DNA from: a virus
Lineage: Duplodnaviria; Heunggongvirae; Uroviricota; Caudoviricetes
Strand: one strand, 5' to 3'
Virus record (IMG/VR): IMGVR_UViG_2751185968_000016
Length of the DNA stretch: 7,979 nucleotides
The translations under genes and the position numbers were made by a program. Each line of letters starts with the position of its first letter. Position 1 is the first letter of the stretch. Below the pieces are notes generated by a model, which was not told the DNA's origin, did no database searches, and saw only the letters and a program-made list of their open reading frames with translations. Positions 1,421 through 7,979 of this stretch are shown here, in pieces.

Positions 1421-3892
1421 TTAAAAATCAGCCTGATTCGGGATCAGTTTTTGCCAGATAACTGAAACGTATTTTGCCTGGTAACGGGCGTCATCAAGTG
1501 CATTATGGCGCTCACCTTCGAATGGAATAGCCGTTCTGGCATCGAAGTCTATGGCTTTCCCCAGCTCAACGATTGTGCGTACATCGCGATCGTTGTAGTA
1601 ACGCCACGGGCAGGGGATCCCCTGCCGTTCGTATGAACGGCGCAAAATCGTGTTGTCGAAGTTGGCTCCATTTCCCCAGACCTGAACAAAAAATTCACCG
1701 GAGTTTTCGTCGATAAATTCCCGCAATTGTAACAGTGCATCATCTAACGGGATTTCATCGGTCATAATGGCAGACTGCGCTTCACGTGATTGCTTCAGCC
1801 ACCTTTTAATGACGTCACGATCAATGACTCCGCCAGCAGTTTCCAGATCGATAGTCTTACTAAATTCCGGTCCCATATCTCCGGTTTGCGGATCGAAAAA
1901 TATTGCACCTATTGAGATAATCGGGGCATCAGGATTTTTTCCCATGGTTTCAAGGTCGATCATTAGATGGTCACACGTCCTGCTGGTGGATGTGATAACG
2001 TGATGACCGTTCATCGTAATTAAGGGATCTGCCGTCTCGCCAGTTTCACTATCGCTGGCGTGATCCTGAGCGCTACCAGCATTCTCCTTGTGTGGATGTT
2101 CAGCGCCTTCCATTTCCTTCGGATCATTTTCCTGAACTTCAACCTGATTCTCTTCATCGAATGTTTCCTGGTATGTTGCGTCACCCATCACCGCGCCACA
2201 ATCAGGGCAGTTGCCGCCACCGCTTTGACCGCAGGCGGTGCAGACTTTTTCCGGTTCCTGTTGCGCTACTGGCTCAGGTTGTTTCGTTTCTGGCTCGTTT
2301 TGTTGCGTATTTGGGCTGTTTTGTTCCGCTTTCTGGTCGTTCTGTTCCGATTCTTGCTGGTTCTGGTTTACAGAATCGCGGGTTTCAATCCCCTTTACCC
2401 ATTTCGGATCATTCGGGTCGCTAATCCCTGCAACAAATTCTCCGCGAGAGGCAGCAAGCAACTTATCGGCGTCAGGCTGGCTGATATTGGCTGCCTGCAT
2501 AATTTTGTTTACTTCGTCAGCGGTAACTTTTACCGGCTCTGGTTGTGCGGTCGTGTCAGATGCACCAGTATTTTGTTGTGAACCTGAGTACGTGCCGTTT
2601 TTACGTGCGAAGTATTCCTCTTTTGTGATTTCCGTAGCTCCCAAGGCTAGTGCTTTTTCCAGACCAGAAAGTTTGTTTGCGCGACCGTATTTTTCGCCAT
2701 CCTTGTCGGTGAAGAGGAAGTAGAACGGCCCCTCACGCTCTACAGATGGTTCGACTTCCACTTTGCATTCGGTTTTTTCGTTGCCCGGAATTGCCGTTTC
2801 CACTGCATCAGTTTCTGGTACTGGCGACGAGAGAGTATCAGTTGCGCTCTGATTTCTTCCTTCATCTTCAAACACGCCCTTTGTAGTCAGGTATTCAGTA
2901 ATGTATTTGTTCAGTGCCACAGGGTCTTTGTGAATGTCGATCGGACGTTCACGGACAAGGCCAAAAATAGTCTGGCGGTCGTAGCGAAGGGCATCAGGCT
3001 GTTTGCGCATTGATGCCGAGATACGCTTCCAGTCTTCGCGGTCGTTGTCGATAACTTCATTTTTTGCCCAGCGATGGATGCTGCCGTCAATGTTTCCGGC
3101 ATCCACATCACCAGGCCAGAGAGCGTAGGCCAGTTCGTCATCCAGTGTTTTCCATGTCTGCTTGTATTCGCGATGAATGGCAGCAATGACCGGGCTGATT
3201 TTTCCTGTTGAATTTTCACTGTGCTGTTGATTGGTTCTGGCGCGGGCGAGATCAACAACAGACGTGTATTTTCCGGTTTCCTTGCGTTCACCTTCGCGAC
3301 GTTTTTTCCAGATGCGCATCTCTGCCTGAATTTCGGGCCATTTGGCACCAGGCTTACATTTATGCTTAACCCACCCGATGGCATGCAGCTTAAGCTCCGG
3401 ATACATGGCGTTAACTTCTGGCATTTTCATCAACGCTTCAACGATATGTCCGTCGAATGTTGCCATGTCTTCCTGCAACAATTCCTGTGCGCTAATAACC
3501 ATATCAACGGTGATGTTTTCACATGTGTCGAACTTAACCATGACAGCGTTCTGTACTTCAGGGGCCAGCTTGTCAAAAGTGACGTTCATCGGATCGGATT
3601 CAGTCTCAACCGGGACAAAGGAAGCAGACTCCTCATCCCAGCGGTTTTCCTGCATATATTCAGCATCCCAGGAATCGAGGGCAGGGCGGGGTATACCGGG
3701 TTTATCCTCGCAGACAAGAAATTTATAAGCGCAGTCCTGAGCAGCCGGATAATGCTCCAGGAATTGCCAGTGAAATTTTGCGCGGGCGCGACGTTCATCA
3801 CCGGCTTCAATGGCTGTGGCTACAGCGACGGCACCTTCTTCCTTTATTGCCTGTTCGTCCGGAATGGCGGCGCAAATAAAGACTTTACTCAT
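1421..3892 (-). CDS. Large multidomain exonuclease-domain protein, 823 aa: YdfE-like N-terminal region, Q/E/N/P heptad linker, 4-Cys zinc ribbon, C-terminal DEDDh (DnaQ/RNase T-like) 3'-5' exonuclease
   Basis: Long ORF with GAGGT Shine-Dalgarno 7 nt upstream of the ATG at 3890-3892. C-terminal domain (residues ~640-815, nt ~1448-1975) has Exo I HLMIDLETMG, Exo II VWGNGANFDNTIL and Exo III HNALDDARYQAKY (H-x4-D), the DEDDh signature. Zinc ribbon CTACGQSGGGNCPDCG at residues 551-566 (nt 2195-2242). N-terminal ~330 residues resemble the K-12 Qin YdfE fragment as I recall it. The central segment KLLAASRGEFVAGISDPNDPKWVKGIETRD...CPDCGAVMGDATYQETFDEE resembles, from memory, the region just before the nuclease domain of Rac RecE. 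Confidence 0.85.
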   Translation of the reverse strand: MSKVFICAAIPDEQAIKEEGAVAVATAIEAGDERRARAKFHWQFLEHYPAAQDCAYKFLVCEDKPGIPRPALDSWDAEYMQENRWDEESASFVPVETESDPMNVTFDKLAPEVQNAVMVKFDTCENITVDMVISAQELLQEDMATFDGHIVEALMKMPEVNAMYPELKLHAIGWVKHKCKPGAKWPEIQAEMRIWKKRREGERKETGKYTSVVDLARARTNQQHSENSTGKISPVIAAIHREYKQTWKTLDDELAYALWPGDVDAGNIDGSIHRWAKNEVIDNDREDWKRISASMRKQPDALRYDRQTIFGLVRERPIDIHKDPVALNKYITEYLTTKGVFEDEGRNQSATDTLSSPVPETDAVETAIPGNEKTECKVEVEPSVEREGPFYFLFTDKDGEKYGRANKLSGLEKALALGATEITKEEYFARKNGTYSGSQQNTGASDTTAQPEPVKVTADEVNKIMQAANISQPDADKLLAASRGEFVAGISDPNDPKWVKGIETRDSVNQNQQESEQNDQKAEQNSPNTQQNEPETKQPEPVAQQEPEKVCTACGQSGGGNCPDCGAVMGDATYQETFDEENQVEVQENDPKEMEGAEHPHKENAGSAQDHASDSETGETADPLITMNGHHVITSTSRTCDHLMIDLETMGKNPDAPIISIGAIFFDPQTGDMGPEFSKTIDLETAGGVIDRDVIKRWLKQSREAQSAIMTDEIPLDDALLQLREFIDENSGEFFVQVWGNGANFDNTILRRSYERQGIPCPWRYYNDRDVRTIVELGKAIDFDARTAIPFEGERHNALDDARYQAKYVSVIWQKLIPNQADF

Positions 3893-3984: not shown

Positions 3985-4176
3985 TTAAAGACCTGCCGGG
4001 ATTTCGTTATTATCCTGGTGAATAACTTTATCGACCGGGTAACAGTTACCGGGAATTTTCTGTTCGGTTGCTGCAGTCACACACTCCTGCATTGTCCTGT
4101 GAACACTGACTGCAATATCAACTGGCTCTCCGGAAACAAGAAAAACTGTCAGAACAAGTGCAAATGCTGTATTCAT
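3985..4176 (-). CDS. ydfD: YdfD-like small membrane lysis protein, 63 aa
   Basis: Internal start of track ORF 3985..4230. MNTAFALVLTVFLVSG is a hydrophobic N-terminal segment. Its ATG (4174-4176) overlaps the dicB stop (4173-4175) as ATGA, indicating translational coupling. Length and sequence match what I recall of Qin YdfD. Confidence 0.7.
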   Translation of the reverse strand: MNTAFALVLTVFLVSGEPVDIAVSVHRTMQECVTAATEQKIPGNCYPVDKVIHQDNNEIPAGL

Positions 4177-4361
4177 TGCCAGCATCCTTTTTGTATCGGA
4201 CGTAAACGGGCCAGCATTGAAAGAATGCATATTTTATTTAATAGCTCCCGTTCGTGTTTTCTCTTGTTAATGGCATCTTCAGTAAATACAGGGTTACTGA
4301 TATTGACACCAATTTCAAAACAACCTTCAGACGTATTAACGTTTGGTAATAACGTTTCCAT
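4173..4361 (-). CDS. dicB: DicB cell-division inhibitor (MinC-dependent FtsZ-ring inhibitor), 62 aa
   Basis: Internal Met of track ORF 4173..4466 gives METLLPNVNTSEGCFEIGVNISNPVFTEDAINKRKHERELLNKICILSMLARLRPIQKGCWQ, near-identical to the K-12 DicB sequence as I recall it. It sits directly downstream of DicF, as in Qin. Confidence 0.85.
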   Translation of the reverse strand: METLLPNVNTSEGCFEIGVNISNPVFTEDAINKRKHERELLNKICILSMLARLRPIQKGCWQ

Positions 4362-4526
4362 TATCGCGTCCTCAACAATGAATTTTGTGATGCGGTGCCT
4401 GGTGCCTCCAGGTGACGTTAACCAGTTAACAATTAACGCCGGATACAGAGAATCCACCCATAACACTGTTTTTGGTTTTAACTGTTCCGCGTGCGCTCAG
4501 CCGCATTCACCACATCACAAAATTCA

Positions 4527-4573
4527 CTTTAAAAAGGGCGGCAGAGCAGTCACGGAGTAAAACTGATACCGCC
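4527..4573 (-). terminator. Rho-independent terminator forming the DicF 3' end
   Basis: GC-rich imperfect stem (GGCGG...CUG/CAG...CCGCC within the DicF 3' half) followed by a U-tract (minus-strand TTTTT at plus 4531-4535). Confidence 0.5.
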
Positions 4574-4588
4574 AAACGTCACCAGAAA
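4536..4588 (-). ncRNA. dicF: DicF small regulatory RNA (Hfq-dependent antisense regulator of ftsZ and other targets)
   Basis: Reverse complement of 4536-4588 reads TTTCTGGTGACGTTTGGCGGTATCAGTTTTACTCCGTGACTGCTCTGCCGCCC, which matches the 53-nt DicF sequence as I remember it. It is followed on the minus strand by a TTTTTAAAG U-tract and lies between the ydfC-like and dicB genes. Confidence 0.85.
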
Positions 4589-4929
4589 ATTGATAACAGA
4601 GGGCGTTGCAGCGGGGTTGTCACTTAAGCGTATGGTCAACCTGACAACCCGGTGTCCTCAACGGTGGAAGGAATAACCCCGCCATACTTACCGCCGCGCC
4701 ATTTCGCGGATTGCCACAACCGGAAGCGCACGGTCGACGAAAATTTAACGACAGGCTATCTATGAACCAGCTACCTCGCCGTGCGCTTTCGCGTTATGGT
4801 CTGACTTTTCAGGGAAATATCCTTTCAGTAAACTGTCAGTGCCGGATGCTCACCCGTGTCCGGCGCACGCACTCCACCTCACCCGTGGAGAACTCCTTAA
4901 TTACCAACCTTAGCTTCGTTGGTTAGCTA

Positions 4930-5148
4930 TTAACGCGGGTATGTAATCATTCTGGCAATGCTTAATGCCGCTGCTTTTTCCAGATTAGTGATATCCTGCT
5001 CCAGAGCGGACAGATTTTCAGCCTGCTTAGCCCTGGCTTCATTGGCCCATTTCAGATCCTGCGCTGCATTAATTTTCTGGTGCATCCACTCATAAAGTTC
5101 ATCATCGGTATAGTCTGGCGCGATGATGACGGGTTCTCGTTTCTGCAT
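4930..5148 (-). CDS. ydfC: YdfC-like small protein, 72 aa, function unknown
   Basis: Track ORF with GAGGAA Shine-Dalgarno upstream of the ATG at 5146-5148. Its size and position (third small ORF after the repressor, upstream of DicF) match Qin ydfC. Predicted helical and charged. Confidence 0.65.
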   Translation of the reverse strand: MQKREPVIIAPDYTDDELYEWMHQKINAAQDLKWANEARAKQAENLSALEQDITNLEKAAALSIARMITYPR

Positions 5149-5177
5149 ACTGATTCCTCGCGGTGCTGCTTCGCTTA

Positions 5178-5306
5178 TCAGCCGTTAGATTTTGCCGAGC
5201 TGGAAAGCGCCTGTTTAAACTCACTGAAGCTGAGAGCTTCTTCGCCTTCGGCAAGGCCTTCGAAGTATTCTTCGTAAGCCTTTTCCATGATTGTGTCGAA
5301 ATCCAT
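5178..5306 (-). CDS. ydfB: YdfB-like tiny acidic protein, 42 aa (MDFDTIMEKAYEEYFEGLAEGEEALSFSEFKQALSSSAKSNG)
   Basis: Hand-translated from the minus strand; not in the ORF track because of its length. AGGTGA Shine-Dalgarno upstream. Its start lies 2 nt after the ydfA-like stop (TGA-T-ATG). Stop is tca at 5178-5180. Confidence 0.55.
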   Translation of the reverse strand: MDFDTIMEKAYEEYFEGLAEGEEALSFSEFKQALSSSAKSNG

Positions 5307-5307
5307 A

Positions 5308-5463
5308 TCACTCACCTGAGTTTCTTTCCAGCCAGCGACGGGCACCATTTTCGGTTTTAAACGTTTTGCTTTTGGTATACGTCATTGCGGTGAACGTGCC
5401 GTCCTGGTTTGGAAACACGCCGTACACCAGAGATTCGTTGTTGCCAAGATCGATAGTATCCAT
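5308..5463 (-). CDS. ydfA: YdfA-like small protein, 51 aa (MDTIDLGNNESLVYGVFPNQDGTFTAMTYTKSKTFKTENGARRWLERNSGE)
   Basis: Internal Met of track ORF 5308..5619, with GAGGT Shine-Dalgarno 5 nt upstream of the ATG at 5461-5463. First gene downstream of the putative pL-like promoter. Confidence 0.6.
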   Translation of the reverse strand: MDTIDLGNNESLVYGVFPNQDGTFTAMTYTKSKTFKTENGARRWLERNSGE

Positions 5464-5539
5464 GCTGACCTCATTTCCCCTTAACGCCGGGGTAGCGGAA
5501 CTGTTTGCGGAGAACACCGTGCGGTGTGTTGATGGAGGT

Positions 5540-5568
5540 AATTTAGTTTTCTCATTATTTTTCGTCAA
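5540..5568 (-). promoter_or_regulatory. Candidate sigma70 promoter of the leftward ydfA-dicF-dicB operon (pL analogue)
   Basis: On the minus strand: -35 TTGACG (plus 5563-5568), 17-nt spacer, -10 TAAATT (plus 5540-5545). Flanked by operator-like inverted repeats. Confidence 0.35.
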
Positions 5569-5590
5569 GGTTTTTTGATGAGAAAACTCA
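5543..5590. promoter_or_regulatory. Two operator-like inverted repeats (TGAG-N4-CTCA type) flanking the -35 of the leftward promoter
   Basis: TGAGAAAACTCA at 5579-5590 and a degenerate inverted copy TTAGTTTTCTCA at 5543-5554, centres ~36 bp apart. The same 12-mer recurs at 6115-6126 in the repressor/cro intergenic region. Confidence 0.4.
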
Positions 5591-5655
5591 AGTGCTGGCG
5601 CAAGATAAAGCCAATACATTGAAATGTAAGGCTTTAAAATTTTGTGAAGGGATGA

Positions 5656-6063
5656 TTATTGATGCTTGTTGCGTTTGCGAGCCTCTAATAGCTCGGTGAA
5701 CAGGCGATTAAAATTCTCAACGCGGGCGCGGAGTTCGCTGAGTTGTGCTTGTTGCTCTGATTTAGGAAGTGCGCGATACAAACGCAGCATCTCTAACTCA
5801 TCTTCCGATAAGTCTAGGGTACTATCGAGTGAAACAGGGGGAGCTGGTGTTTTGTCCTCGTCGCCAAACAGTATCCAGGTTGGTGAACATTGCAATACCT
5901 CGGCGAGGCGATGCAAATTTTGCCCGCGCGGGGCTGTATGGTCACTTTCCCATAATGAAATTGATGAGCCAGATACGCCAGCAGCTTTGCTTAAACCGTT
6001 TTGACTTAAGCCTACCTGCTTACGTCTTTCTCTAATGCGTTGACCTAAAGTTTTCTCGTTCAT
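5656..6063 (-). CDS. dicA: DicA-like XRE-family HTH repressor (CI/C2 analogue), 135 aa
   Basis: Internal start MNEKTLGQRIRERRKQVGLSQNGLSKAAGVSGSSISLWE... gives 135 aa, the DicA length. Classic HTH_XRE pattern and a conserved LQCSPTWILFGDED segment. Divergent from the Cro-like gene. The track's 152-aa form is an upstream extension. Confidence 0.8.
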   Translation of the reverse strand: MNEKTLGQRIRERRKQVGLSQNGLSKAAGVSGSSISLWESDHTAPRGQNLHRLAEVLQCSPTWILFGDEDKTPAPPVSLDSTLDLSEDELEMLRLYRALPKSEQQAQLSELRARVENFNRLFTELLEARKRNKHQ

Positions 6064-6084
6064 ATTTAGATATCTTAATAATCC

Positions 6085-6128
6085 TTGACTTGAGATTCCT
6101 TGAGTGATTAGCATTGAGAAAACTCAAT
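6085..6128 (+). promoter_or_regulatory. Candidate rightward promoter (pR analogue) with overlapping operator
   Basis: -35 TTGACT (6085-6090), 18-nt spacer, -10 TAGCAT (6109-6114). Inverted repeat TTGAGAAAACTCAA (6114-6127) lies immediately downstream. Further TTGAG half-sites at 6090-6094 and 6100-6104. Confidence 0.4.
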
Positions 6129-6140
6129 ATTGGAGGTGCG

Positions 6141-6368
6141 ATGTTTAAATCAGACGTAATTAATTTTTACGGTACGAAAGCCAAAGTAGCGAAAGCTGCT
6201 GGCGTTGACCCATCTGCTGTTTCTCAATGGCAAGAGCTAGTTCCTGAAGGTCGCGCGATGCGTCTACAGGAGGCATCTGGCGGCGAGCTTCTGTATGATC
6301 CCAAGGTTTATGACGAATATCGTAAGACGAAGCGGGCGGGGCGGTTGAACAATGAAAATCACTCCTGA
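6141..6368 (+). CDS. Cro-like small HTH regulator of the YdaS/DicC family, 75 aa
   Basis: GGAGG Shine-Dalgarno at 6133-6137 and ATG at 6141; the track's 84-aa form starts upstream of the SD. Conserved YdaS/DicC-type core (FYGTKAKVAKAAGVDPSAVSQW). Divergent from the repressor. Confidence 0.75.
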   Translation: MFKSDVINFYGTKAKVAKAAGVDPSAVSQWQELVPEGRAMRLQEASGGELLYDPKVYDEYRKTKRAGRLNNENHS

Positions 6369-6873: not shown

Positions 6874-7631
6874 ACGCCCACTGGTTATAAACACACAGCT
6901 TGCGATGAAGATTGGCTTAAATGAAGCCATTGTGTTGCAGCAGTTGCATTACTGGTTGAGAGATACCAATTCCGGCATGGAATGTGATGGTGTTCGCTGG
7001 ATTTACAACACAACGGAACAATGGCTGGAACAGTTCCCATTCTGGTCAGAGTCAACGTTAAAGCGCGCGTTTGCAAGTCTGAAAACGCTGGGGCTCTTGC
7101 GTTGTGAAAAGCTCAATAAATCAAAGCGCGATATGACCAATTTCTACACGATTAACTATGGGAGCGAGCTTTTAGATGATGGCAAATTGAGCGAATCCAT
7201 CGGTTCAAAATGCGCCGCTCCATCAGGTCAAAATGACACGATGGAAGAGGTCAAAATGAAACGCTCCATTGGTTCAAAACGACCCAATGTCATCGGGTCA
7301 AAATGGCCCGATGATCCTACAGAGAATACAACAGAGATTACTACAGAGAATAAAAACACTTTTCGTCCGGAAGCTTCGCAACCGGACCCGCAGACGGCTG
7401 AACAGGATTTTTTAATCCGGCACCCTGGCGCAGTTGTGTTTAGTGCGAAAAAACGCCAGTGGGGTAGCCAGGAGGATCTGGCGTGTGCGCAGTGGATATG
7501 GGGGCGGATCGTGGGTCTCTACGAACAGGCCGCCAGTGATGATGGCGAGATCATGCGACCAAAAGAGCCTAACTGGACTGTCTGGGCCAATGATGTGCGC
7601 ACAATGCGGATGCTGGATGGCAGAAGCCACA
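6854..7631 (+). pseudogene. Replication initiator (lambda O-like replisome organizer), C-terminally truncated by IS insertion
   Basis: The N-terminal domain FAERPLVINTQLAMKIGLNEAIVLQQLHYWL...TLKRAFASLKTLGLL is typical of phage O-type initiators. Iterons lie inside the gene. Homology-independent break at 7631/7632, where an IS terminal inverted repeat begins; the remaining track translation to 7792 is read-through into the IS. Confidence 0.6.
7195..7306. repeat. Five direct iterons (consensus about CATCGGTCAAAATG) at 23-24 bp spacing: candidate prophage replication origin
   Basis: TCAAAA cores at 7205, 7228, 7251, 7274 and 7298. Followed by an A-rich segment with a duplicated TACAGAGAATA (7318-7353). 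Embedded in the O-like gene, as lambda ori is in O. Confidence 0.6.
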
Positions 7632-7673: not shown

Positions 7674-7979
7674 TCAGGCTGCCAGATCATCGTTTCCGAT
7701 GGAAGCATAATAAGCTTTTTCTGCTTCTGCCGGAGGGATGTGGCCCAGCCTTTCCAGCAATCGTCGATTATTATACCAGTCCACCCACGTGAGTGTGGCC
7801 AGTTCCACTTCTGCACGGTTTTTCCAGCTCTTACGGTGTATTACCTCCGCTTTGTAAAGACCATTGATGCTCTCCGCCATCGCGTTGTCATACGAGTCGC
7901 CTGTACTTCCTGTTGATGCCAGTAATCCGGCTTCCTTAAGCCGCTGTGTGTAGGCCAGCGATACATACTGAGAACCTTT
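7674..7979 (-). CDS. IS3-family transposase OrfB, C-terminal 101 aa (5' end outside the window)
   Basis: Minus-strand frame is open from the window end to the stop at 7674-7676: KGSQYVSLAYTQRLKEAGLLASTGSTGDSYDNAMAESINGLYKAEVIH...NNRRLLERLGH..., containing the DDE-domain YDNA..AES block typical of IS3-family OrfB. Confidence 0.85.
   Translation of the reverse strand, partial: KGSQYVSLAYTQRLKEAGLLASTGSTGDSYDNAMAESINGLYKAEVIHRKSWKNRAEVELATLTWVDWYNNRRLLERLGHIPPAEAEKAYYASIGNDDLAA

Follow-up and report, generated by a model that had tools for sequence, protein, structure and literature searches.

A repeated palindrome as the probable operator of a DicA-type repressor at both early promoters of a Qin/dicBF-type prophage

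Among the closest described systems is the Qin locus of E. coli K-12 (Bejar et al. 1986/1988; Yun et al. 2012, PMC3441716; Ragunathan & Vanderpool 2023, PMC10448788), in which DicA represses dicCp and dicBp, the recognised analogues of PR and PL (PMC10448788; PMC3441716), with a 22-fold effect at dicBp (PMC10448788). In vivo, K-12 DicA binds Oc, an operator at the position equivalent to OR1, and a single A>C change abolishes this binding, while no binding is seen at the equivalent Om and Oa (PMC3441716). The 5' end of the transcript from dicCp has been mapped by 5'RACE, and Oc overlaps the -10 of this promoter (PMC3441716). For dicBp, the Reg-Seq paper gives the DicA site as low-evidence and of unknown location. 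Repression by DicA-type proteins can reportedly be lifted by the antirepressor Rem or by DicC, and DicC is stated to bind the same operators as the repressor (PMC10448788). The repressor of phage P22 recognises 18-bp sites in which the central 4 bp are uncontacted and A-tract centres are preferred (PMC4267663).

The window analysed here, a stretch of 7,979 nucleotides, is on sequence grounds a Qin/dicBF-type lambdoid prophage of E. coli (Table 1). Like K-12 Qin, and in the same order, it holds ydfABC-dicF-dicB, a predicted leftward promoter, dicA and a divergent dicC, all of the same families. The repressor matches NCBIfam NF007257 DicA with 239 bits (cutoff 101) over residues 1-135 of 135 and is 57% identical to K-12 DicA, with which it shares both its length and the lack of an S24 domain (for K-12, PMC10448788); specifically, a Pfam search of the repressor returned HTH families only, with no Peptidase_S24 match. 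Its N-terminal HTH domain is homologous to that of P22 C2 (PDB 1adr, E 8e-16), and the alignments with PDB 1adr, 2r1j and 3jxb run ungapped over residues 1-72 with E values from 8e-16 to 1e-14. In contrast, P22 C2 carries a C-terminal S24 autocleavage domain stimulated by RecA, and lambda cI likewise has an S24 domain with RecA-assisted cleavage that is absent from DicA-type repressors. The DicC-like protein, whose gene begins 77 nt from the repressor start in the divergent direction, scores 165 bits against NCBIfam DicC (cutoff 130) and matches Pfam P22_Cro (PF14549, E 3e-16), and the differences from K-12 DicC, to which it is 70% identical, are concentrated in its N-terminal HTH part. Compared with K-12 DNA, only the flanks match; the module running from the leftward -10 into the N-terminal half of dicC has been exchanged, and the window's repressor has a different recognition helix.

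Table 1. Coordinates of the immunity region, its predicted promoters and operators, and the leftward genes in the window
Feature	Coordinates	Strand	Basis or detail
Exonuclease gene (823 aa)	1421-3892	-	exonuclease domain PF16473; downstream of operon genes
Start of leftward operon	4173..5463	-	downstream of leftward promoter
dicB	4173-4361	-	NCBIfam DicB, 130 bits
DicF RNA	4536-4587	-	Rfam match, 76.7 bits
ydfC	4930-5148	-	leftward operon
ydfB		-	leftward operon; listed between ydfA and ydfC
ydfA	5308-5463	-	DUF1391
Predicted leftward early promoter (dicBp / PL equivalent)	5540..5568	-	consensus scan; homology to annotated P22 PL
OL1-like operator AATTTAG-TTTT-CTCATTA	5540..5557	.	core 5543-5554
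OL2-like operator TGATGAG-AAAA-CTCAAGT	5576..5593	.	core 5579-5590
DicA-type repressor gene (135 aa)	5656..6063	-	NCBIfam DicA, PDB 1adr, Pfam
OR3-like weak site TATTTAG-ATAT-CTTAATA	6063..6080	.	positional homology to P22 OR3
Predicted rightward early promoter (dicCp / PR equivalent)	6085..6114	+	consensus scan
OR2-like weak site ACTTGAG-ATTC-CTTGAGT	6088..6105	.	positional; overlaps rightward -35
OR1-like operator CATTGAG-AAAA-CTCAATA	6112..6129	.	core 6115-6126
DicC / Cro-like gene (75 aa)	6141..6368	+	NCBIfam DicC, Pfam P22_Cro

A preliminary description of this DNA had pointed to a 12-bp element shared by the two promoter regions, and a motif scan of the whole window confirms all three copies: two match TGAGAAAACTCA exactly, one at 5579-5590 (+) and the other at 6115-6126 (+), and TGAGAAAACTAA, an inverted copy with one mismatch, lies at 5543-5554 (-). 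TGAGAAAACTCA is an inverted repeat of TGAG and CTCA around an asymmetric AAAA centre, and the exact word common to the two regions is a 13-mer, TGAGAAAACTCAA. Each copy forms the core of an 18-bp site of the 7-4-7 geometry known from P22, with the consensus TTGAG-AAAA-CTCAA and with half-sites that read TTGAG, ATGAG or TTTAG in the strong sites. The best of them, the OR1-like site, matches 10 of the 10 positions of TTGAG-N4-CTCAA, and apart from its AAAA centre the stretch 6113-6128 is a perfect 16-bp palindrome (ATTGAG-AAAA-CTCAAT).

On the leftward side, the consensus scan predicts a -35 TTGACG (5568-5563), a 17-nt spacer and a -10 TAAATT (5545-5540), with a start at about 5533; this promoter is homologous to the annotated P22 PL (TTGACC / TAAATT). 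From these promoter positions, the one-mismatch copy covers the leftward -10, with its 18-bp site spanning the -10 and spacer, and this position makes it the equivalent of OL1: P22 OL1 (L225, 194-211) is placed alike and likewise includes TAAATT as its -10 hexamer. Between the other leftward copy and the -35 there are 10 bp (7 bp from the end of its 18-bp site), this copy being on the upstream side, where it occupies the place of P22 OL2 (TTTGAAG-AAAA-CTTAAAT). Centre to centre, the OL1-like and OL2-like sites are 36 bp apart, against 35 bp between the P22 pair, and the -35 lies between OL1 and OL2 in both. The earlier positions of the two leftward copies thus stand, with the correction that they are the cores of 18-bp sites of P22 type and that the degenerate one lies over the -10. 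A search upstream of the OL2-like site for an OL3 equivalent found none.

On the rightward side, the scan predicts a -35 TTGACT (6085-6090), an 18-nt spacer and a -10 TAGCAT (6109-6114), with a start predicted at about 6121 (+). The OR1-like site overlaps this -10 and the predicted +1, its core beginning directly after the -10, in agreement with where the preliminary description had put it, and its position is that of both K-12 Oc and P22 OR1. Two weaker sites lie towards the repressor gene. The OR2-like site has a poor right half, CTTGA instead of CTCAA, yet both its place and its ATTC centre match P22 OR2 (ACTAAAG-ATTC-CTTTAGT). The OR3-like site abuts the repressor start codon and holds a PRM-like -10 TAAGAT (6079-6074, - strand), with a predicted, almost leaderless start at about 6066 (-), just as P22 OR3, AGTTAAGTCATCTTAAAT, stands directly beside the c2 ATG, and the annotated P22 PRM is also homologous in position. 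As a whole, promoters and operator-like sites are placed almost base for base as in P22 immC (c2, cro, OR1-3, OL1-3), with OR3-OR2-OR1 spacings of 25/24 bp in the window and 25/23 bp in P22, a Cro of the P22_Cro family, strong sites at the OL1, OL2 and OR1 positions and weak positional matches at OR2 and OR3; the first leftward gene differs, being ydfA here and the antiterminator gene 24 in P22. The half-site also differs, TTGAG in the window versus TTAAG in P22, and the ATTTAAG half-site of P22 is not the one found. The logic of lambda (cI, cro) is alike, with one repressor, two outward early promoters flanking its own gene and a divergent cro, whereas the 17-bp lambda operators show no sequence relationship to those of the window.

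To avoid circularity at the OL sites, which loci picked by the motif would have introduced, the loci for the conservation alignment were chosen by repressor protein. In this alignment, 4 of 36 core columns vary, compared with 117 of the 234 columns in the rest of the intergenic DNA (Fisher p 7.5e-6, a value that overstates independence among related sequences). The cores, including that of the OR1-like site, are nearly invariant while the flanking bases on both sides vary, the OL1-like core is invariant in nearly all of these relatives, and the rightward -35 is invariant among relatives. Additionally, in Buttiauxella prophages, whose repressors are 74-76% identical, ATTGAGAAAACTCA is kept at PR and PL and TTAGTTTTCTCAA is kept over the PL -10, while the surrounding DNA has diverged; the full site at the OL2-like position is ATTGAGAAAACTCAAT in B. 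ferragutiae (L010) and ATTGAGAAAACTCAG in B. gaviniae (L011).

In other immunity types within the prophage family, these three positions are occupied by a palindrome of different sequence, which changes along with the recognition helices of repressor and Cro. Specifically, the repressor helix S[GD]SSISLWES goes with TTGAG-AAAA-CTCAA, SHVSVSQWER (K-12) with TGTTAG..CTAACA, AHVTISQWER with TTAG-N6-CTAA variants, and SSVSVFKWE with TAAC-AAAA-GTTA, and the Cro HTH changes in parallel with the operator and the repressor helix. A matrix of longest shared words between PR and PL regions sets the window's group and the L019/L020 group clearly apart; this crude measure does not resolve the TTAG-N6-CTAA types. 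The co-variation supports the earlier suggestion that the motif would define the immunity specificity of the prophage.

Taken together, we propose, with a probability of about 0.85, that the repeated motif is the operator of the DicA-type repressor at both early promoters of the prophage immunity switch; gene families, the K-12 precedent and the comparative tests all argue for a single repressor at OL- and OR-like operators, as first suggested. This is an ordinary phage immunity switch, which reveals no new kind of mechanism, with a previously undescribed operator sequence and a new immunity specificity; a full-text literature search for the motif returned unrelated papers only. Motif sequence, position, conservation, co-variation and protein family membership are shown by the data, whereas repressor binding, repression, autoactivation and exonuclease co-transcription are inferred. 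A dimer of the 135-aa repressor would bind sites of P22 geometry, 18 bp long and two-fold symmetric, in which two contacted 7-bp halves flank four uncontacted central bp. By analogy with P22, lambda and K-12 Qin, occupancy of the OL1-like and OL2-like sites would block RNA polymerase at the leftward promoter driving ydfABC-dicF-dicB, and occupancy of the OR1-like site would block it at the promoter of the Cro-like dicC gene. The bound repressor probably also supports its own gene via the weak PRM-like promoter beside the start codon, and once the switch flips, the DicC/Cro-like protein would act at these sites in turn and silence the repressor gene. Immunity specificity would be set by the G of TTGAG and by the invariant A-tract at the centre, and would differ from that of K-12 Qin (TGTTAG..CTAACA) and of P22 (TTAAG..CTTAA). 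The switch had also been said to gate dicF/dicB and exonuclease expression: dicF and dicB do lie downstream of the leftward promoter, and the leftward operon genes are probably co-transcribed, as in K-12 (PMC10448788), while for the exonuclease gene co-orientation with the operon is what suggests such control.

How many sites serve this switch is less clear-cut. It is plausible, if somewhat doubtful, that just the three single operators function, without a tripartite cooperative OR, and that the OR2-like and OR3-like sites represent promoter elements or remnants from an ancestor resembling P22. Consistent with this, K-12 DicA bound Oc in vivo and neither Om nor Oa (PMC3441716), and the two weak sites lack the A-tract centre and match the consensus no better than chance; since the degenerate motif stands out by clustering and not by overall frequency, neither the OR2-like site nor the OR3-like site (2 mismatches) can be called from the motif alone. 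Their conservation could also stem from the overlapping -35, PRM-like -10 and start codon. On the other hand, they agree with P22 OR2 and OR3 in position, in spacing and even in the ATTC centre, columns 6064-6079 of the OR3-like site are invariant across 17 distinct PR sequences, the core TTTAGATATCTTAAT is kept in C. braakii although the OR1-like site has changed there, and cooperative binding escapes single-site in vivo assays. The two weak sites may thus be cooperatively filled, Cro-preferred or relics.

A second alternative assigns the sites mainly to the Cro-like DicC instead of the DicA-type repressor. The HTH region of DicC does change along with the operators from one immunity type to the next, but the repressor recognition helix co-varies with them at least as clearly. 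In lambdoid phages, Cro and repressor bind the same operators, and sharing of the sites by DicC and repressor is expected here; exclusive use by DicC is not. In K-12, deletion of dicA derepresses dicBp 22-fold while deletion of dicC is without effect (PMC10448788), and DicA binds Oc directly in vivo (PMC3441716), which makes a mainly DicC-dependent role highly improbable.

Slightly less credible still is a role of the inverted pair 5542-5555 / 5578-5591 in RNA and not as DNA bound by protein, in which it would form a hairpin that terminates or attenuates transcripts reading through from the repressor gene. The minus-strand RNA of 5530-5605 does fold at -13.6 kcal/mol (z = -3.4), and Buttiauxella retains the opposed TTTT and AAAA centres. 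However, a palindrome present twice can always pair with itself, so that a hairpin between the OL sites arises from the repeat automatically; it lacks a following U tract, no terminator-like site was detected there, and its loop contains the conserved -35 box. Nor does a hairpin explain the third copy, which sits at the other promoter at a distance of 536 bp, and other immunity types hold two sites here without strong mutual complementarity. We therefore rejected the OL-pair hairpin as a terminator.

The location of the motif, which we read as that of the repressor operator, is not due to chance, as judged from shuffle statistics for the common 13-mer and from counts in a complete phage. A 13-mer common to both intergenic regions (192 nt and 77 nt) arises in only 0.02-0.08% of shuffles. 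In HannyBb, a complete 45-kb phage whose repressor is 99.3% identical to the window's, a search of the whole genome gives 3 motif matches at up to one mismatch against 0.31 expected (0 of 100 shuffles reach 3), all at places equivalent to the three sites of the window and none elsewhere in the phage; for the exact 12-mer, about 0.5 chance occurrences are expected per 4.6 Mb, so that a count in the host chromosome would say little. The motif count over the whole window is weak evidence by itself: at up to two mismatches there are 3 matches against 0.94 expected. Likewise, the degenerate palindrome TTGAG-N4-CTCAA at up to two mismatches shows no overall enrichment in the window (6 vs 4.3 expected) or in HannyBb (17 vs 22.5 expected), and what is notable is solely that it clusters in the immunity region. 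That the repeat is a coincidence of AT-rich intergenic sequence, as 9 of 200 shuffles with 3 whole-window matches and several unrelated exact repeats of 12-16 nt elsewhere in the 8-kb window might suggest, is effectively refuted by the location-restricted statistics, the phylogenetic conservation and the co-variation with the repressor, and the probability of such a coincidence is negligible. A fourth core copy, GAGAAAACT at 6049-6057 (-), lies inside repressor codons 2-5. It is not conserved in Buttiauxella, whose repressor begins MNEMT, and was taken as a coding coincidence.

The window's prophage and K-12 Qin would be expected to be heteroimmune, given the replaced module, the differences in the DicA helix and in the operators (TTGAG-N4-CTCAA versus TGTTAG-N6-CTAACA, with Oc being TTGTTAGTNNNNACTAACAA), and the fact that the CTAA>CTCA mutation that abolishes binding at K-12 Oc creates the half-site of the window, which thus departs from the specificity of Oc. 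The virulent mutant P22virB-3 carries TTAAG>TTGAG in OR1. Since TTGAG and TTAAG differ at the very base changed in this mutant and the K-12 Oc mutation leads to CTCA, we tentatively consider that this immunity type might have arisen when a P22-like switch was re-targeted in nature, an operator-escape change being followed by a rebuilt helix, though we regard this as rather unlikely. Residues N32, V33, Q37, E44 and N46 of the P22 repressor align with G, S, L, A and R in that of the window. If re-targeting did occur, new immunities in this family would begin with a 'vir'-like change of a single contacted base, after which the helix is rebuilt by N32G, V33S and Q37L, the strictly conserved AAAA together with A44/R46 (E44/N46 in P22) would point to a repressor that depends on a pre-narrowed minor groove, that is, on indirect readout, and the family would offer a compact natural system for the evolution of repressor-operator specificity.

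Operator types would also predict which prophages are heteroimmune. As in the window, K-12 has a strong palindromic operator over the dicC -10 and two sites flanking the dicBp -35 at equal positions, so that the comparison across immunity types also locates likely K-12 DicA sites at dicBp. The operator sequence and promoter layout are hereby fixed for a common E. coli prophage immunity type, and about 800 of 5,426 complete genomes contain 80% or more of the length of the immunity module.

The 12-bp inverted repeat TGAGAAAACTCA, which the preliminary description had picked out from the sequence, occurs exactly at 5579-5590 and 6115-6126 and, as TGAGAAAACTAA on the opposite strand, at 5543-5554, all three where that description had put them; the longest exact word shared between copies is 13 nt. 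A consensus scan finds one promoter per direction, equivalent to PL and PR, and the copies fall within predicted 18-bp operators that we name by position after phage P22. All three strong sites of the window have an AAAA/TTTT centre.

Features of the window (coordinates are window positions) and the P22 sites used for comparison
Feature	Position	Strand	Details
Integrase ORF, 451 aa	1-1356	-	
823-aa protein, C-terminal 3'-5' exonuclease domain	1421-3892	-	
ydfD	left of DicF RNA, beside dicB	-	
dicB	4173-4361	-	NCBIfam DicB, 130 bits
DicF RNA	4536-4587	-	Rfam, 76.7 bits
ydfC, ydfB	between DicF RNA and ydfA	-	
ydfA	5308-5463	-	DUF1391
Leftward promoter	-35 TTGACG 5568-5563; -10 TAAATT 5545-5540	-	17 nt between; consensus scan
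OL1-like, predicted	5540-5557		AATTTAG-TTTT-CTCATTA; over leftward -10
OL2-like, predicted	5576-5593		TGATGAG-AAAA-CTCAAGT; 18-bp site upstream of leftward -35, ending 7 bp short of it
Repressor gene, 135 aa	5656-6063	-	NCBIfam DicA, 239 bits (cutoff 101)
OR3-position weak site, candidate	6063-6080		TATTTAG-ATAT-CTTAATA; adjoins repressor ATG; 7-4-7 shape
Rightward promoter	-35 TTGACT 6085-6090; -10 TAGCAT 6109-6114	+	18 nt between; consensus scan
OR2-position weak site, candidate	6088-6105		ACTTGAG-ATTC-CTTGAGT; over rightward -35; 7-4-7 shape
OR1-like, predicted	6112-6129		CATTGAG-AAAA-CTCAATA; overlaps rightward -10 and predicted +1
DicC / P22_Cro-family gene, 75 aa	6141-6368	+	
YdaT-like gene	right of DicC-type gene	+	
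O-like replication gene	right of YdaT-like gene	+	
P22 OL1			ATTTAAG-ACTT-CTTAATT; includes PL -10 TAAATT
P22 OL2			TTTGAAG-AAAA-CTTAAAT; upstream of -35 TTGACC
P22 OL3			ACTTAAG-TTTT-TATTTGA; farther upstream than OL2
P22 OR3			AGTTAAG-TCAT-CTTAAAT; right after c2 ATG
P22 OR2			ACTAAAG-ATTC-CTTTAGT; over -35 TTGACT
P22 OR1			ATTTAAG-TGTT-CTTTAAT; over -10

The window reproduces the layout of P22 immC, whose sites were read from the annotated wild-type region. Specifically, the -10 hexamer within OL1 is identical, the OL1-OL2 spacing is 36 bp in the window and 35 bp in P22, the OR3-OR2-OR1 spacings are 25/24 bp and 25/23 bp, respectively, the OR2 centre is ATTC in both, and a TAAGAT hexamer lies where the annotated PRM -10 of P22 sits. 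Residues 1-72 of the repressor align without gaps to the C2 N-terminal domain (PDB 1adr, E 8e-16), with G, S, L, A and R where C2 has N32, V33, Q37, E44 and N46. The OR2- and OR3-like sites may or may not be bound: judged by the motif, they match no better than chance, and their equivalents in the E. coli K-12 cryptic prophage Qin, Om and Oa, are unbound by DicA in vivo (PMC3441716); on the other hand, their positions and conservation mirror P22.

In K-12 Qin, the operator Oc, TTGTTAGTTATGACTAACAA, lies immediately upstream of dicC at the place equivalent to OR1; it is bound by DicA in vivo and overlaps the dicC promoter at its -10, the 5' end of the transcript being known from 5'RACE (PMC3441716). 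K-12 dicBp, which is derepressed 22-fold on dicA deletion and was equated with PL, as was dicCp with PR (PMC10448788), carries TTAGCCATGACTAAC over its -10 and GCTATAGCTAACAT upstream of its -35, where the window has its two left sites. DicA binding is abolished when one A of Oc is replaced by C (CTAA>CTCA; PMC3441716), and this mutation creates the window's CTCA half-site; likewise, TTGAG is the OR1 base change that distinguishes virulent P22virB-3 from wild type. Both changes point to this half-site base as a determinant of specificity.

Other members of the family fill the same three positions with a palindrome of their own. The recognition helix S[GD]SSISLWES goes with TTGAG-AAAA-CTCAA (window, Buttiauxella), SHVSVSQWER with TGTTAG..CTAACA (K-12, Citrobacter locus L015), AHVTISQWER with TGTTAG..CTAACA or CTTAG..CTAAG (loci L003-L007), SSVSVFKWE with TAAC-AAAA-GTTA (L019, L020) and SNVAISQWER with TTAAG..CTTAA (P22); the C. 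braakii helix, SHATISLWES, is intermediate. The Cro HTH varies in parallel with the immunity types. When PR and PL regions are compared in a shared-word matrix, the words common to members of the window's group are 12-16-mers, against at most 9-11-mers between this group and all others. The co-variation of palindrome, recognition helix and Cro HTH supports the earlier proposal that the motif defines immunity specificity. The arrangement itself is known from K-12 Qin and P22, and the literature searched yielded no instance of this operator sequence; the window therefore represents a new specificity for a familiar type of switch. K-12 Qin DNA matches only the flanks of the immunity module, which marks the window as a different module in the same prophage family; among 5,426 complete E. 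coli genomes, about 800 contain 80% or more of the module's length.

As RNA, the two left sites pair into a well-folding hairpin (z = -3.4). Such pairing follows automatically from having two copies of a palindrome, however; the hairpin lacks a U tract and does not account for the third copy. The leader of the leftward transcript (5464-5533, - strand), compared across the window, L001, L003-L007, L010, L012 and L015-L020, is near-identical whichever of the four E. coli immunity types it belongs to, while the operators just upstream differ, which places a mosaic boundary between OL1 and the leader. Its 5' hairpin, ACACCG-CA-CGGUGU, is AAUCAC..GUGAUU in Buttiauxella and Citrobacter, a seemingly compensatory replacement. 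Another hairpin, CCCC-GGCGUUAA-GGGG, precedes the ydfA ribosome-binding site and may be a nutL-like site; more distant loci have here a stem-GAAAGA-stem resembling lambda boxB.

Reading the sites as operators and arguing from the homologous systems, we propose that repressor dimers on the OL1- and OR1-like sites would occlude both -10 regions; cooperative binding across the -35 is the probable contribution of the OL2-like site, as in P22. A weak PRM-like promoter, near-leaderless and in need of bound repressor, is the probable source of the repressor transcript, in agreement with dicA not being transcribed without DicA in K-12 (PMC3441716). DicC would flip the switch through these same sites; their exclusive use by DicC contradicts K-12 genetics (PMC10448788). 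With no S24 domain in the repressor, induction would be expected by antirepressor or DicC, as in K-12 (PMC10448788), and not by RecA-dependent cleavage.

In a first alignment, of loci chosen by the motif, the OR1-like site is invariant and its flanks highly variable. As this choice is circular for the left sites, the test was repeated with loci chosen on the basis of their repressor protein (80 from IMG/VR, genome contigs and one E. coli match): 4/36 core columns vary versus 117/234 other intergenic columns (43 distinct PL and 17 distinct PR sequences), with a Fisher p of 7.5e-6 that overstates independence since the sequences are related. The most telling evidence comes from the Buttiauxella prophages, whose repressors are 76% and 74% identical to the window's and whose downstream genes are different: in otherwise diverged DNA they retain ATTGAGAAAACTCA(AT) both at PR and on the upstream side of the PL -35, and the PL -10 is still covered by TTAGTTTTCTCAA. 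Because each 18-mer is variable at its outer three positions, conservation is confined to an element of about 12-14 bp, similar in extent to the 12 bp initially marked. A fourth core copy, GAGAAAACT (6049-6057, - strand, codons 2-5 of the repressor gene), is not kept in these relatives and was therefore rejected as a probable coding coincidence.

The whole-window motif count (3 versus 0.94 expected, equalled in 9/200 shuffles) is weak evidence, and several unrelated repeats of 12-16 nt also occur in the window. The placement of the copies argues more strongly: a 13-mer common to the 192-nt and 77-nt intergenic regions arises in only 0.02-0.08% of shuffles. A full-prophage search, as first suggested, was run on HannyBb, a complete 45-kb phage with a 99.3% identical repressor, and found the motif at one mismatch or fewer three times (0.31 expected; 0/100 shuffles reach three), all at equivalent places. 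Taken together, the 13-mer shuffles, Buttiauxella, the HannyBb count and the protein-chosen test exclude chance.

The window covers the left arm of an E. coli lambdoid prophage of the Qin/dicBF type together with its immunity region. HannyBb homology ends at 7631 within the O-like replication gene, 188 nt short of the gene end in HannyBb, and is followed by an IS3-family transposase fragment (rve_3/rve_2 domains; 7674-7880, - strand); the gene is thus interrupted and the prophage probably defective. The ydfC/ydfB segment (4810-5205) lacks a HannyBb nucleotide match, lies between flanks that match at 93-98%, and is another mosaic joint within the leftward operon. The integrase module (1-1412) also has no match in HannyBb; residues 6-73 of its ORF form an excisionase-like domain (PF07825), followed by lambda-type arm-binding and catalytic domains, and the ORF is either a xis-int fusion or has an internal true int start. 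In the 823-aa protein, the known domain covers only the last ~180 residues (Rv2179c-like 3'-5' exoribonuclease, E 3e-63), and a Pfam search of residues 1 to ~640, including a long acidic/Q-rich stretch, gave no match. The integrase and exonuclease genes share a 16-nt exact direct repeat, TTTCCTGTTGAATTTT (840-855 and 3201-3216), for which the chance expectation in 8 kb is about 0.01-0.02.
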